NCBI GenBank assembly: GCA_002733355.1
Contig: NVVN01000001.1
Location: 324,073-388,072 of the forward strand
Reading direction: 5' to 3'
DNA: 64,000 bases
From: Sulfurovum sp.
GTDB taxonomy: Bacteria > Campylobacterota > Campylobacteria > Campylobacterales > Sulfurovaceae
Every line of letters starts with the position of its first letter. Position 1 is the first letter of the stretch. This document shows, piece by piece, positions 31,638 to 50,180 of this stretch. Under the pieces are notes generated by a model, which saw only the letters and a list, made by a program, of their open reading frames with translations, was not told the origin of the DNA and ran no database searches. The position numbers and the translations under genes were made by a program.

Positions 31638-32291
31638 CTATAAGCTCTCTATATTCCCAACTACTTTCCCAACAATAGTCACTTCATCCGCAGCAATAGC
31701 CTGAGGAGGGTAAAGACTATTATCAGAAATGAGCTCTACCATACCGTCTACCCGTTGCTGAATACGTTTGATAAAGAGCCCACCTGTCGTTGAAGCGATA
31801 AAAATACCATTTTTATTAATATTCGTCTGTGTTCTATCTACAAAAACGATGCTTCCATCTTGAAGTGTAGGCTCCATGGACTCGCCATCTACATGGATTG
31901 CTTCAAGCTCTGTATTACCCATGCCAACCATATTGTGCATAATCTTCTCATCTAGCGTAATAGTCTCATAGTTTTCATCAAACACTTCAGCCCCACCCCC
32001 TGCACTTGCACGGATATCAGAAAAATACCGTACTTGAAAAAACTTTTCAGTCTCAACTTTTAACATATCCACTGCCTGATCAAAAAATAGCCAATTGACT
32101 GAAATTTTCTTCAGTGCACAAAACTCCAATATCTCTTCATAAGGGATGGAATTTCTTTTCTTCATCGTTGCAAAAGTTGCCTGAGGGATATTCAAAGCAT
32201 CAGCCACATCTTTGTCAAATACTTTTTTACCTATTATGCTTTCTGAAATTACATCTTTTAACTTATCTATCACTTCGCTTAAAACTAACAT
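31638..32291 (-). CDS. CI/LexA-like repressor: phage-CI-type HTH plus S24 autopeptidase
   Basis: Ala-Gly scissile site (RASAGGG), catalytic Ser (GESMEP) and Lys (FIKR); start ATG 32291 after AAAGGAG. Confidence 0.92.
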   Translation of the reverse strand: MLVLSEVIDKLKDVISESIIGKKVFDKDVADALNIPQATFATMKKRNSIPYEEILEFCALKKISVNWLFFDQAVDMLKVETEKFFQVRYFSDIRASAGGGAEVFDENYETITLDEKIMHNMVGMGNTELEAIHVDGESMEPTLQDGSIVFVDRTQTNINKNGIFIASTTGGLFIKRIQQRVDGMVELISDNSLYPPQAIAADEVTIVGKVVGNIESL

Positions 32292-32344
32292 ATTGACTCC
32301 TTTTCCATATATATAGGTAATCATATACTAAGTTTTCTTAAAAG

Positions 32345-32361
32345 TATGACAATTTGACATA
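32345..32361. promoter_or_regulatory. Putative operator 1
   Basis: TATGACAA-T-TTGACATA, one mismatch from the perfect palindrome. It overlaps back-to-back -35-like hexamers (TTGACA on +, TTGTCA on -). Confidence 0.7.
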
Positions 32362-32385
32362 TTTTTTAGTATTTTTACCATTTAA

Positions 32386-32402
32386 CTATACAATTTGACA
32401 TA
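32386..32402. promoter_or_regulatory. Putative operator 2
   Basis: CTATACAA-T-TTGACATA, 41 bp from operator 1 and just upstream of the small-ORF RBS. Confidence 0.6.
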
Positions 32403-32423
32403 TTTAATCATAAAGGATATCAA

Positions 32424-32537
32424 ATGGTATACTCAAAAAATAAAGAATTATTAAGCTACGCAATTAAAATGGGATGTAAAACAGCAGCAGATTTTGCAAT
32501 GTTTTTAAGAGCGAGAAATTCTATTCTAGCTCTTTAA
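32424..32537 (+). CDS. Small protein (37 aa) divergent from the repressor; absent from the ORF track
   Basis: AAAGGA RBS then ATG; MVYSKNKELLSYAIKMGCKTAADFAMFLRARNSILAL; ends 4 bp before the convergent moeA stop. Confidence 0.65.
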   Translation: MVYSKNKELLSYAIKMGCKTAADFAMFLRARNSILAL

Positions 32538-32541
32538 TACT

Positions 32542-46467: not shown

Positions 46468-47204
46468 TCTCTATCCATTTCTTTAACAGCTTCTATATAC
46501 GCCCTATCTGCTTCTTCTGTTGCTATTAATTCTTCTTCTGTAAGATTAATATCTACAATTGTATTTTTCACTTCACGTACCCTTTCTTTCTCTACTTTTT
46601 CTAGCGCTAGTGTTTCTTCTTCTTTCATTTTTATACGTTTTTTAGCTTCTTGTATTTCTAACTCTTTTTTTTCTGCTTCTTTTTTCGCCATTTCCTCAAG
46701 TTTTGTTTTTTCCTCTTTAGCTTTAGCCTGTACTGCCCTGGCTTCTTCTATTTTTACTTGTTCTTGTTTGACTTTCTCTATTCTTTCATATTCTACCTTG
46801 GCTTGTCTTGCTTTGGTCTTTTCAGCTTCAAGTTCTTCTTCTCTGGCTTTTTTTATTTTTTCTTCTTCAACTTTCACCAGTAACAATGTTTCTTCTTTTT
46901 CTACTACTTTGTTTTCTACAGTATCGGCTTCTTCCTGCCCAGGAACAGTCATATTATCCTCAGAAGGTAAACGTGATAAATCCTTGGCCTTTTCCTCATT
47001 TGTACCAACTGATAGAGTAGGAGCATTTACAGTTTCTGCTCTTATTTTTTTTCTCTCTTCTATCTCTTTAAATGTAGACAATAAAAGCTCTTGGTCTCTA
47101 TCTATTTTCTGAAGATTTTCATTTAACGCAAAAGGATTTTCTTCTGCATGAATATTTATACTCGATGCTATCATTATTATTACTGTCCATAGATACTTTT
47201 TCAT
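46464..47204 (-). CDS. Exported E/K/A-rich coiled-coil hypothetical protein
   Basis: Signal peptide, ENPF motif and a long charged helical region. Confidence 0.7.
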   Translation of the reverse strand: MKKYLWTVIIMIASSINIHAEENPFALNENLQKIDRDQELLLSTFKEIEERKKIRAETVNAPTLSVGTNEEKAKDLSRLPSEDNMTVPGQEEADTVENKVVEKEETLLLVKVEEEKIKKAREEELEAEKTKARQAKVEYERIEKVKQEQVKIEEARAVQAKAKEEKTKLEEMAKKEAEKKELEIQEAKKRIKMKEEETLALEKVEKERVREVKNTIVDINLTEEELIATEEADRAYIEAVKEMDRD

Positions 47205-47206
47205 TC

Positions 47207-47467
47207 TTATTCCTTAGGTTCTAACTGTTTTAACTCGAAATATTCTTTTTGAAGCCTTTTGTTTTCATCTTTCAATGCTTCCCCTTCTTCAATAAGCCCT
47301 TGTTTTTTCTCTTTTAACTGATGTAAAACAGTTAAAGAGTTTTCTCCATAAATCAAAATACCCACATAAATACCAAAAAGCAAGATACCTATGGTTGTCA
47401 CTAAAAATGCTTTGATTGACAGACCAGCAATCGTTCCTATTTCTTGTGTATTAGACATCTGAGACAT
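47207..47467 (-). CDS. FtsB/DivIC-like septum formation initiator
   Basis: One TM, GENSL, then a leucine-zipper-like coil; directly after eno. Confidence 0.7.
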   Translation of the reverse strand: MSQMSNTQEIGTIAGLSIKAFLVTTIGILLFGIYVGILIYGENSLTVLHQLKEKKQGLIEEGEALKDENKRLQKEYFELKQLEPKE

Positions 47468-48741
47468 TATTTAGAAAAAAGTGAAGTACCCAGGTATTCA
47501 AACTGTCCAAGTTCTGCTTCTATCTCAAGAAGTCTGTTATATTTTGCAATTCTGTCCGATCTTGCAGTTGATCCTGTTTTGATTTGTCCTGTATTAAGTG
47601 CTACAGCAAAGTCAGCGATAAATGTATCTTCACTCTCACCTGAACGATGAGACATTACACAGTTATATCCATTTCTTTGAGCAAGACGTACTGTTTGCAT
47701 CGTTTCGGAAACTGTTCCTATTTGATTTGGCTTAATGAGGATAGAATTTGCAATATCTTTTTCAATTCCCTCTGCTAAAATAGTAACATTCGTAACAAAC
47801 AGGTCATCTCCAACAAGCTGTACTTTATCTCCAAGCACTTCTGTTAAATGCTTCCATCCATCCCAGTCATCCTCACCAAGTCCATCTTCAATAGAAACTA
47901 TTGGGTACTTCCCGCACATATCAGCATAATATGCCGTAAGTTCAGTAGAAGTAATTTCTCTATTTTCTGATTTAAGTACATACAACCCTTGATCATTAAG
48001 TAGTTCAGATGCTGCCACATCAAGTGCAATGGCTATCTGTTCACCTGGTTTATACCCTGCTTTCTCTATGGCTTTCACTATCACTTCAAGAGGCTCTTCG
48101 TTAGAGCTCAAGTTTGGTGCAAATCCACCTTCATCGCCTACAGCAGTACTCTCTCCCATCTCATCGATGATTTTTTTGAGGTTATGGTAGACCTCAGCAC
48201 ATGCCCTGAGACCTTCTGAAAATCTATCAAACCCAATAGGCATGACCATATATTCTTGAAAGTCTACAGAGTTGTTTGCATGCTCACCACCATTTATGAT
48301 ATTGAGCATTGGTACTGGCATTACCACTGCGTTTGCTCCACCTAAGTAACGATACAGTGGCATCTTCATACTCTTTGCAGCTGCACGCGCAATAGCCATT
48401 GAAACACCGAGTACAGCATTGGCACCAAGGTTTCCGTAGTTCTCCGTACCATCCACTTCTTTCATCGTTAAGTCTATTTCAGCCTGATTAAAAGGACTTA
48501 GTCCTACCAAAGCATCACAAATAGAACCATTTACATTTTCACATGCTTGCAGCACACCTTTTCCCATATAACGGTCTCCACCATCACGTAACTCCAATGC
48601 TTCACGTTTTCCCGTGCTTGCACCACTTGGAACAATAGCACTCTCTACTGTTCCATCACTCAAACTTACTGTTGCCCGAACTGTAGGGTTCCCCCTAGAA
48701 TCCATCACTTCTGTCGCTACGATTTCATCGATAAAAATCAT
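47467..48741 (-). CDS. eno: Enolase
   Basis: [25 protein letters not shown] and SHRSGESED. Confidence 0.99.
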
Positions 48742-49017
48742 CTATGTCCCTTTTAGTAATAATTAATACTCTTATTTTATCGAAATTTACCCTATACTTA
48801 TATGAGTATTAAATTTTAGATAGGGACATGACATATGTAGCTTTTTTTCATAGTCCTAATTTGTACTTCATATTAGGTAGAGGAACAGCACTATAAGTGA
48901 ATTATCTAATAATCTGATTTTACCCATTTTTGATGATATGCCCTGTATTTTAGGTTGAGAAAGGTACGAAGCATTTATTTTACTTCGTACAAGAAATGTG
49001 TAAATATATAATAAAGG

Positions 49018-50055
49018 TTAATGCTCCTTCATCTCACTTTCATCTACTGTTAGTGATTCACCAAAGCCCAATGCTTCTTTTACTTTTGCGTCAATTTCAG
49101 CAAATAGCTCCGGATTTTCCTTGATAGTAATTCTAGCATTCTCTTTCCCNTGCCCCAACTTCTCAGTACCATAAGAGAACCATGCACCAGATTTATCTAC
49201 AATATCCATTTTGATTCCATAATCTATAAGCTCACCAATATACGAAATACCCTCACCAAACATAATATCAAACTCTGCTTGCCTAAATGGTGGTGCTACT
49301 TTATTTTTTACTACCTTCGCTTTTACTCGGTTACCGATGCTTGACTCTCCTTGTTTAAGTGTGGCGATTCGACGAACATCAATACGCACTGAACAATAAA
49401 ATTTTAGTGCATTACCACCTGTAGTAGTCTCTGGACTACCGTACCCCATAGTACCAATCTTCATGCGAATTTGGTTTATGAAGATGACTGTGGTATTTGT
49501 CTTATGCAAAACAGCAGTAAGCTTACGAAGAGCCTGAGACATCAGTCTTGCTTGCAGTCCTACATGCACGTCACCCATATCTCCCTCTATCTCTGCTTTA
49601 GGGGTAAGTGCTGCTACGGAATCCACGACAATTAAATCAACTGCTCCAGAACGTGCAAGTGTTTCAAGTACATCTAAAGCTTGTTCTCCAAAGTCTGGTT
49701 GAGACACAAGTAAATTATCTGTATCTACTCCTAGGTTTTTAGCATATATAACATCTAGAGCATGTTCTGCATCTATAAATGCACAAACCATGTCTTTTTT
49801 TTGTGCAGAGGCGATGGTTTGCAATGCCAGTGTGGTTTTCCCTGATGACTCAGGACCATATATCTCTACAATACGTCCTTGAGGTATGCCACCAATACCA
49901 AGTGCCATATCTAGTCCAAGAGATCCCGTAGAAATAGATTCTATGGGCTCAAACTCTTTGTCACCAAGTCTCATAAGTGTACCTTTACCAAACGTCTTAT
50001 CTATCTGTTTGATAGCTATATCTAGTGCTTTTTGTTTGTTTGCATCCATTGCCAT
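49018..50055 (-). CDS. recA: Recombinase A
   Basis: [27 protein letters not shown] and KNKVAPPF; start could be 50061. Confidence 0.99.
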
Positions 50056-50153
50056 TGTCATATCCTTAACCTTTATGTTNNAGTAATTTTATCTAAATAA
50101 TCAGAGTTTATTTAGTCATGTTGGTAGTTTAATAGAAATTTGAGAGGAAATAC

Positions 50154-50180
50154 AAAAATATGTCAAATTGACATATTTTT
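50154..50180. promoter_or_regulatory. Perfect 27-bp palindrome between recA and mqnD; putative SOS-like operator
   Basis: AAAAATATGTCAA-A-TTGACATATTTTT with 13-bp perfect arms. Confidence 0.8.

Follow-up and report, generated by a model that had tools for sequence, protein, structure and literature searches.

A CI-type S24 protein as a probable LexA substitute in Sulfurovum, with a phased palindromic operator at recA

A 217-amino-acid protein of Sulfurovum sp. that combines a CI-type helix-turn-helix (HTH) with an S24 peptidase domain probably serves as a substitute for LexA and, judging from sequence, would repress a regulon until it is cleaved. Its gene lies in the window, by which we mean the whole stretch of 64,000 nucleotides that was analyzed (positions 324073-388072 of contig NVVN01000001.1); the corresponding assembly (GCA_002733355.1) comprises 1.94 Mb in 22 contigs, is 94% complete, has 36% G+C and contains scattered N. 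The putative operator is the palindrome TATGTCAA-W-TTGACATA, which has a 17-bp core with A5/T5 flanks and is found upstream of recA, at the regulator gene and at other promoters of the genome. In the mechanism that we propose, a dimeric regulator with a 186-CI-type HTH and an S24 domain would bind the palindrome together with the A/T flanks at about 27 promoters, among them that of its own gene. Upon DNA damage, filaments of RecA on single-stranded DNA would trigger cleavage at Ala97-Gly98 by the Ser138/Lys175 dyad, whereupon dimeric binding would be lost and the regulon would be turned on. Repressor and RNA polymerase would compete for the flanked operator, which would coincide with the upstream contact surface of the polymerase and may even provide it.

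The palindrome in the window and its genome-wide targets

The features of the window on which the argument rests are the following.

49018-50061, minus strand: recA (NCBIfam TIGR02012, 1.1e-166)
50126-50131, minus strand: predicted recA -10 hexamer TAAACT, exactly 27 nt from the operator core
50154-50180: recA operator, a perfect palindrome with 13-bp arms and a central A; core 50159-50175; score 39.1, the highest of the genome
50255-51121, plus strand: mqnD-type menaquinone gene, divergent from recA (Pfam VitK2_biosynth, 1.5e-63)
31638-32291, minus strand: regulator gene (CI-type HTH and S24), 217 aa; the longest open reading frame (ORF) extends to 32324
32320-32325, minus strand: predicted regulator -10 hexamer TATGAT, 19 nt from O1
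32340-32366: operator O1, core 32345-32361, one mismatch, A/T flanks, score 36.1
32386-32402: operator O2, matching in its centre and right arm TTGACATA, with five mismatches in the left arm
32424-32537, plus strand: conserved micro-ORF of 37 aa, divergent from the regulator gene
1146-1172: paralogue operator, core 1151-1167, three mismatches, score 22.6
1195-1200, plus strand: predicted paralogue -10 hexamer TATGAT, exactly 27 nt past the operator core
1228-1464, plus strand: HTH-only paralogue of 78 aa without an S24 domain, about 31 kb from the regulator gene

All four sites listed in the initial annotation are present, the one at 32386-32402 in its centre and right arm only. The recA site had been described as having perfect 13-bp arms and lying about 100 bp upstream of the gene, which agrees with the 98 nt measured from the operator core to the recA start (50061); the predicted transcription start site is the A at 50119. 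It had also been proposed that this site might control the divergent mqnD instead. This may hold in part: the phasing of the palindrome to the recA -10 hexamer ties the site to the recA promoter, and mqnD, which has TAAAAT 18 nt from the operator on its own side, may be co-regulated through the same site in a different geometry.

At the regulator locus, O1 is common to the divergent promoters of the regulator gene and the micro-ORF. The regulator -10 hexamer is located 18-19 nt from O1, which places O1 with its centre near -40, and in most of the orthologous loci examined a TATAAT-like hexamer was seen by eye, without a tally, at 18-19 nt from the operator on the regulator side. O2 had been listed as a site upstream of the repressor gene but belongs to the promoter of the divergent micro-ORF: its left part contains the micro-ORF -10 hexamer TACAAT (32389-32394), exactly 27 nt past O1, and its right half, TTGACATA, spans the predicted micro-ORF start site. 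The centres of O1 and O2 are 41 bp apart, and TACAAT followed by TTGACATA or a close variant was seen in many orthologous loci.

Within the window alone, the motif signal is weak, with 3 matches at up to three mismatches compared to 0.71 expected; 3 of 100 shuffles likewise gave 3 matches. Genome-wide, the palindrome is far more frequent than expected by chance. At up to two mismatches, 19 sites were found compared to 2 for the reversed pattern. Conservation extends beyond the search pattern by five bases either way, with A prevailing in one flank and T in the other. With a 29-column matrix made from these sites, 27 sites reached the threshold score of 18, compared to 1 with the reversed matrix. 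The centres of 24 of the 27 sites are intergenic, the intergenic share being 7.9% of the genome in a simple ORF map, and when the intergenic blocks were shuffled 100 times, 0.03 sites were obtained on average. The window itself holds 267 N in short runs within genes and spacers (e.g. 50080-50081 and 1900-2000), which result in X residues in several translations, including those of recA and fusA.

The expectation that a genome-wide matrix scan would reveal enrichment at recombination and repair genes was borne out, with sites at recA, radA/sms, recG, ruvA, recQ, a Y-family Pol IV-like polymerase gene and yraN. Additional sites are found at genes related to transformation (dprA, a ComM/YifB-type ATPase, and a secreted ExeM/NucH-type nuclease), to mobile elements (an integron integrase, a Y1 transposase associated with repetitive extragenic palindromes (REPs), and an ORF6N protein), to defence (three C5 cytosine methyltransferases, an Mrr-type endonuclease, and an AbiJ-like protein of the STM4504 family), and to toxin-antitoxin systems (a RelE toxin and a HigB/HigA-like pair), as well as at the two regulator genes, i.e. 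those of the S24 protein and its HTH-only paralogue. Divergent partners and other genes comprise mqnD, plsC-like, purT, glyS, mltG, a DUF485 protein gene, a methyltransferase gene, a glutamate-synthase-like gene, and several small ORFs without a family. At the integron integrase gene (contig C1, around 9253; TIGR02249, 3e-123), the palindrome precedes a TAAGAT hexamer by exactly 27 nt. An epsilon-proteobacterial Pol IV-like group is named in the available part of a survey of Y-family polymerases (PMC6511836).

In six relatives from other genera, sites were found at recA, radA, radC, comM, dprA, and a recG-like helicase gene; at genes for DUF2130 proteins, a PIF1-type helicase, a ComEA-like protein, and the nuclease; at methylase and NgoPII genes and those of Y1 transposases, RelE, MazF, Fic, Cap15, and ORF6N; and again at the genes of the regulator and the paralogue. 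Overall, the regulon is not a canonical SOS set; its emphasis is on recombination, mobile elements, defence, and the processing of transforming DNA. The idea of a CI-type repressor running a damage regulon through a box of its own is supported by each of the computational tests that had been suggested for it, with a regulon that departs from the SOS set implied by the initial annotation.

The regulator, its partners and their distribution

The regulator most likely starts at 32291 and not at 32324. It matches the Pfam families Phage_CI_repr at residues 26-70 (2.4e-7) and Peptidase_S24 (PF00717) at residues 94-211 (3.3e-22). Ser138 (G-E-S-M) and Lys175 (F-I-K-R) align with the catalytic Ser and Lys of UmuD', and Ala97-Gly98 lies inside a conserved A-S-A-G-G-G stretch of the linker. 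In an alignment of 11 sequences, Gly98, Ser138, and Lys175 are invariant and Ala97 is nearly so; Ala-Gly, Ser138, and Lys175 are also conserved in 50 sequences of the family and 18 from other families, while genus g7 has Cys-Gly in place of Ala-Gly. The protein therefore shows the S24 domain, the Ser-Lys dyad, and the Ala-Gly scissile bond of S24 repressors, and the intact cleavage site and dyad reported in the initial annotation are confirmed. Its AlphaFold model (mean predicted local distance difference test score, pLDDT, 74) has structural matches to a lambda-186 hybrid repressor, 186 CI, LexA chains, among them LexA on the RecA filament, and a lambda CI cleavage-site fragment, with 186 CI, LexA, and lambda CI as the best; the C-terminal part of the model matches chains of LexA, lambda CI, and UmuD'.

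The LexA profile TIGR00498 matches only the C-terminal part of the regulator, with 37 bits compared to a cut-off of 110.95, i.e. below the level of a LexA equivalog. The LexA DNA-binding domain (PF01726) had no match in this genome, and canonical LexA as defined by TIGR00498 was found in 0 of 251 genomes sampled from the class, in line with the premise that LexA is lacking. The only other S24 match of the genome is a 92-aa ORF without an HTH on contig C22. As a rival regulator it was set aside as a maturation protease, having no HTH and adjoining a 156-aa ORF; judging from its N-terminal motif, the 156-aa product is probably a nickel superoxide dismutase, and the 92-aa product would be its maturation protease. 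This pair (C22, 1022-1770; the 156-aa ORF followed by the 92-aa S24/S26-type ORF) is unrelated to the regulon.

The regulator gene is located among genes for a dksA/traR zinc-finger protein, moeA, gltX, dcd, topA, and lipid synthesis, and none of the 16 ORFs scanned was identified as a phage gene, which fits the housekeeping neighbourhood noted at the outset. A ComEA-like gene (36738-37298, minus strand; TIGR01259, 2.3e-14) lies about 4.4 kb from the regulator gene and has no operator at a score of at least 12; in genome G053, a ComEA-like helix-hairpin-helix gene does carry a site.

The divergent micro-ORF is placed where cro stands in a phage switch. An ORF of 32-60 aa with a ribosome binding site and a conserved core is found in 27 of 29 loci across genera, its centre being a strongly conserved S-G-C-(K/Q)-T stretch followed by a helix-like segment. 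It has no Pfam family and no usable Atlas match. In other bacteria, small SOS-induced genes adjoin lexA, a position comparable to that of the micro-ORF.

The HTH-only paralogue is 34-36% identical to the N-terminus of the regulator and matches Phage_CI_repr at 0.0029, which is under the Pfam cut-off. Of 27 paralogue loci in relatives, 26 have an operator and 21 have a TATAAT-like hexamer (at least five of six positions) at +27. As a short ORF, the paralogue was found in all genomes of g1 (7/7), g3 (6/6), g9 (6/6), and g6 (2/2), in most of g4 (4/6) and g5 (5/6), and in G039; no such ORF was found in g2, g7, g10, and g11.

The regulator was detected (E<=1e-5) in 50 of the 61 Sulfurovaceae genomes sampled. 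About 46 of the 50 are full-length orthologues with 57-89% identity, and genus g7 has only a relative of 37-38% identity. In the class sample of 251 genomes, using a threshold of E 1e-20, matches were found in f4 (5/6), f6 (11/11), f7 (16/16), f8 (6/6), f9 (1/1), f10 (1/1), f11 (10/10), and f12 (3/3), with identities of 36-54%, mostly 42-54%, across f4 to f12. The two largest sampled families, f2 and f3, which are probably Helicobacteraceae and Campylobacteraceae, gave 6 matches in 81 and 24 in 105 genomes, respectively; as the f3 and most of the f2 matches are only 33-39% identical, they may be prophage genes. The regulator is therefore a core gene in Sulfurovaceae and occurs order-wide, and it is mostly missing from the two largest sampled families. 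The initial view of a system in a free-living member of the phylum has to be widened accordingly to the order, with the exception of these two families. Second S24 regulators of 41-45% identity, with other helices and other upstream repeats, occur in G035 (two equal-scoring copies, C1:1358491-1359132 and 2193439-2194080), G023 (C30), and G020 (C3). They are probably carried on mobile elements, with phage-borne cousins circulating in the family.

The motif upstream of the regulator gene is conserved. It lies 53-109 nt upstream in 29 of 30 fetched loci of the family, the only miss being a locus without upstream DNA, and was likewise found in 75 of 80 further loci. In genus g2, the regulator gene stands at the end of a moaD-moaE-moeA operon with almost no spacer, and the operator is upstream of moaD; mqnD is divergent from this moaD-to-regulator operon, with the operator in between.

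We also counted motif sites per genome at up to two mismatches, with the reversed pattern as a control. Counts were high in g1 (9-20; control 1-4), g5 (11-18; control 0; 3 in one 74%-complete genome), g9 (7-14), g6 (7-10), g3 (7-9, but 1 in G002), and G039 (30), and lower in g2 (3-6), g4 (1-6), g10 (0-7), g7 (0-1), and g11 (0-2). The matrix derived from the present genome missed variant operators of g10, so that counts in distant genera are understated. Of the 11 family genomes in which the regulator was not found, 10 had 0-4 sites; the motif is thus at background level in nearly all of them, as would be expected if the two belong together.

The autoregulatory palindrome drifts between families. 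Families f6, f7, and f11 have an operator of the type TAT(G/T)(T/A)CAA and a recognition helix Q-x-x-(F/L)-A-T-M-K, and f4 and f8 have TTAACAA-W-TTGTTAA and P-E-x-(L/F)-S-x-L-K-R-R. Operator and recognition helix thus appear, from these sequences, to co-vary between families, possibly as the result of a single evolutionary event.

The recA operator is also conserved in relatives that carry the regulator. Within the family, 26 of 48 testable recA upstream regions have a site with a score of at least 12, located 93-127 nt from the start of the recA profile match. It was present in all fetched genomes of g1, g3, and g9, in 3 of 4 of g5, in the single g6 genome, in all five of g4 with weaker scores, and in 1 of 6 of g10; the g10 genomes G021, G041, and G059 have variant recA palindromes with the same 27-nt spacing, as judged by eye. 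In g8, G039 and G008, which have the regulator, carry a recA site or a variant of it, and G019, G057, G029, and G048, which lack the regulator, have no recA site. No recA site was found in four g7 and four g11 genomes; three of the latter regions score 9-10, and one of these, in G032, belongs to a genome with the regulator. Outside the family, the recA promoter has a palindrome with the same 27-nt spacing in f6, f7, and f11 (one genome each), and none was seen at the recA promoter in f4 and f8. The recA operator thus recurs in four families.

Promoter geometry and alternative explanations

For the analysis of promoter geometry, each site was oriented both ways, and a hexamer was counted if at least five of its six positions matched TATAAT. 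The alignment of 46 promoters shows A5, the palindrome, T5, 22 unconserved bases, TAtAAT, six bases, and an A in 79% of the cases, which we take as the likely start site. From the fixed 27-nt spacing and this start site, the palindrome is centred at -48, its core spanning -56 to -40 and the T-tract extending to -35. Of the two half-sites, the distal one shows the stronger conservation, and at -52 A is preferred to the palindromic T. No conserved -35 element is present in the 46 aligned regulon promoters. Across the genome, 28% of the -10 hexamers are preceded by G at -14 and there is little -35 signal; with G at -14 in 35%, the regulon promoters are ordinary for this genome in these two features. 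A -35 hexamer at 17-nt spacing is weakly enriched genome-wide (27 compared to about 12 per spacer). TTGACA-like hexamers located 9 nt upstream of TATAAT-like ones are also in excess in intergenic DNA (37 compared to about 12 per spacer) and may represent another repeated element.

Several observations weigh against the S24 protein being a plain repressor in the manner of LexA. The hexamer lies exactly 27 nt past the core in 19 of 54 flanks of this genome, other offsets having 0-3, and in 27 of 94 flanks of the relatives, with 5 at 28 nt; the background is about 1 per offset. Such rigid spacing is typical of activator sites or of direct polymerase contact and not of LexA boxes, and a site centred at -48 overlaps neither the -10 nor the usual -35 position. 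recA promoters that bear an operator have a weak -10 hexamer without a TGn extension, while several operator-less ones have a perfect or extended -10, a pattern that suits activation. The paralogue, with its similar recognition helix, could bind the same sites, and large regulons go with its presence. Neither uvrB nor ssb has a site, with best scores of -0.1 and -2.3 within 400 nt upstream. At E 1e-30, the assembly, which is 94% complete and contains N, gave no match for uvrA; we draw no conclusion from this. In genome G037, where the regulator was not found (330 contigs) and the paralogue is present, there are 18 sites; G008 has the regulator and no consensus site, its own upstream site being a variant; and genus g2 (six genomes) has the regulator and no recA site. 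Finally, the scoring matrix is circular, since it was derived from sites that it scores; this does not affect the flanks, the reversed control, or the gene context. A side observation from g2 is that 4 of 5 recA promoters have an extended -10.

In favour of repression, O2 covers the -10 hexamer and start site of the micro-ORF, where only repression is possible, and integrases, transposases, toxins, nucleases, and error-prone polymerases are genes normally kept off. The protein itself has the attributes of a co-opted phage repressor, being a CI-type S24 protein kept vertically in a LexA-less clade with its operator at repair genes.

The alternative that fares best is dual or positive control, in which the S24 protein or its cleaved N-terminal fragment would activate the promoters phased at 27 nt, much as lambda CI does at PRM, and would repress only where the operator overlaps the core promoter, as at O2 and perhaps at its own promoter. 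This explanation would account for the exact phasing here, in six relatives of other genera, and in three other families, for the stronger distal half-site and the A at -52, for a flanked site that ends at -35 beside the expected position of sigma region 4, for the weak -10 hexamers of operator-bearing recA promoters, and for the regulator's own operator near -40, close to which class II activators sit. We nevertheless regard it as unlikely. Damage that destroyed an activator would lower recA, Pol IV, and ruvA, which is biologically implausible; repression is the normal state of integrase, transposase, toxin, and nuclease genes; and the regulon promoters, being ordinary, have no deficit for an activator to fill.

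With regard to a lambda-type switch, two putative operators lie between the regulator gene and a divergent 37-aa ORF, the HTH-only paralogue is located about 31 kb away, and there are no phage genes nearby. It is conceivable, if quite improbable, that the two HTH proteins form a pair like CI and Cro, with the 78-aa paralogue as the main occupant of the -48 sites, either as an activator or as a non-cleavable repressor for resetting, and with the S24 protein chiefly controlling itself, the micro-ORF, and the paralogue. The shared HTH type with 34-36% identity, the membership of the paralogue in the regulon (26 of 27 loci), and its presence in the site-rich g1, g3, g5, g6, g9, and G039 but not in g2, g10, and g11, which have the S24 gene and few sites, are consistent with such a division of labour. 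However, g10 retains the 27-nt geometry without the paralogue, as in the recA palindromes of G021, G041, and G059, g4 has the paralogue and few consensus sites, and the operator appears to change with the S24 helix across families.

We consider it very improbable that the palindrome is not a site of the HTH proteins at all but a promoter element, a REP spread by Y1 transposases, a bidirectional terminator, or the target of another regulator such as the product of the WYL-domain ORF on contig C22. Such a role is suggested by the TTGACA within the box, which the initial annotation had pointed out as a possible sigma70 -35 element, by Y1 transposase genes that have a site immediately upstream, both here and, in three instances, in G039, by the potential to fold into a hairpin followed by a T run, and by the presence of one WYL ORF in the genome. 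The -35 assignment was rejected because the -10 hexamer lies 29 nt from TTGACA and not 17. The palindrome occupies orthologous positions at the same genes across genera and families, unlike repeat elements. As it is also AT-rich, lacks GTAG, and keeps a set distance to -10 boxes, we rejected a REP. Published REPs, including one from Sulfurovum, have a GTAG start and GC-rich stems according to the available part of the source (PMC4690160). A terminator was rejected because of the phasing to -10 boxes and the location of several sites between divergent genes, and the apparent co-variation of operator and S24 helix counts against this group of alternatives as a whole. The WYL-domain ORF is a single one (contig C22:44665-44796, in an open frame of 189 aa) and has no evident link to the palindrome.

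A prophage remnant with a local CI-type immunity switch, to which the 186-CI-type N-terminal domain, the divergent promoters with two operators, and the distant, sometimes duplicated and maybe mobile copies (41-45% identity) in a few relatives might point, is scarcely credible for a syntenic core gene that is 57-92% identical within the family, has housekeeping neighbours, is 42-54% identical across eight further families, and shares its operator with recA and about 25 other unlinked operons.

Significance and comparison with known systems

To our knowledge, the Epsilonproteobacteria (Campylobacterota) are usually cited as lacking LexA and an SOS response, a view that rests on Helicobacter pylori and Campylobacter jejuni. 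In full-text searches on SOS and LexA in Epsilonproteobacteria, subscription-only papers being outside their scope, we found no description of the system reported here. From the distribution of gene and operator we predict a regulon that responds to damage under an S24 repressor in most other families of the order, with recA controlled in at least four families, and its absence from most members of the two pathogen-rich families. More tentatively, and as a possibility that we do not favour as it stands, the Campylobacterales may ancestrally have held a domesticated phage switch, consisting of a cleavable CI-type regulator, a Cro-sized paralogue, and a micro-protein, which replaced LexA and was lost in Helicobacter and Campylobacter. 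Its operator would be locked at -48 because the regulator contacts the polymerase directly, with repression or activation depending on the state of the regulator, and the system would couple damage to recombination, transforming DNA, integrons and transposons, and defence.

If the preferred reading of a cleavable repressor is true, the system would be a third, large, and independent SOS network rebuilt on a phage-type repressor. It would provide a mechanism connecting DNA damage to transformation genes in the class, a case of convergent SOS control of an integron integrase, and an unusual, strictly phased layout of operator and promoter that is directly testable. The predictions can be tested in cultured Sulfurovum strains or in tractable species of the other families that carry the gene.

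Among known systems, the non-canonical LexA of Bacteroidetes is alike in that a CI-type S24 peptidase replaces LexA in a large free-living clade, with a palindromic operator and self-regulation, and in that recA and dinB belong to its network, joined in some species by recG, recQ, and radC, as far as the available part of the report covers it (PMC8565304). According to the same part, its motifs (GGA-N5-TCC and CTAA-N5-TTAG) differ and its network is canonical, with umuDC, recN, ruvB, and imuA-imuB-dnaE2, whereas in Sulfurovum uvrB and ssb have no site and the network takes in dprA, comM, radA, and intI as well as genes for toxin-antitoxin and restriction-modification systems. The fixed spacing between operator and -10, the HTH-only paralogue, and the divergent micro-ORF are features of Sulfurovum that find no mention for Bacteroidetes in the available text (PMC8565304). 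The Bacteroidetes system was shown by gel shift and reverse transcription quantitative PCR, as given there (PMC8565304), while that of Sulfurovum is known from sequence.

FddR of Francisella, as described in the accessible part of its report, is likewise a phage-type S24 repressor that was co-opted where no working LexA is present, and dinB is regulated in some species (PMC13148647). It differs in its very small network, in that recA is not induced, in its restriction to one genus, and in its motif GTG-N11-CAC (PMC13148647, same part). In contrast, the Sulfurovum system comprises about 27 promoters including that of recA, and its regulator occurs order-wide.

Two further systems bear on the composition of the regulon. 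In LexA-less H. pylori, DNA damage induces natural-competence genes, as stated in the part of the paper at hand (PMC2912397). Compared with this response, the Sulfurovum-type regulon joins recA and repair with dprA, comM, radC, and ComEA-like genes. Since f2, probably the Helicobacteraceae, is mostly without the regulator (6 of 81 genomes), the H. pylori response would run by another route. DdaA of Moraxellaceae, in the available excerpt, is also a non-LexA regulator that couples the damage response to anti-phage defence, e.g. restriction-modification, but it is a WYL activator and not an S24 repressor (PMC12392091).

Canonical LexA, lambda CI, 186 CI, and UmuD share the Ala-Gly site, the Ser/Lys dyad, and the S24 fold with the Sulfurovum protein, and canonical LexA additionally shares the predicted self-regulation and the presence of recA in the regulon. 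It differs in its winged-helix DNA-binding domain, which was not found in this genome. LexA regulons include integron integrase and toxin-antitoxin genes, in likeness to the regulon described here, and lambda OR, with several 17-bp operators between divergent promoters, resembles the arrangement of O1 and O2. LexA boxes take variable positions over the core promoter, whereas the Sulfurovum-type site keeps a fixed position at -48. New in this system are the exact distance of 27 nt between the palindrome and the -10 hexamer, which centres the palindrome at -48, and the conserved micro-ORF, divergent from the regulator gene, with a second operator over its -10 and +1.

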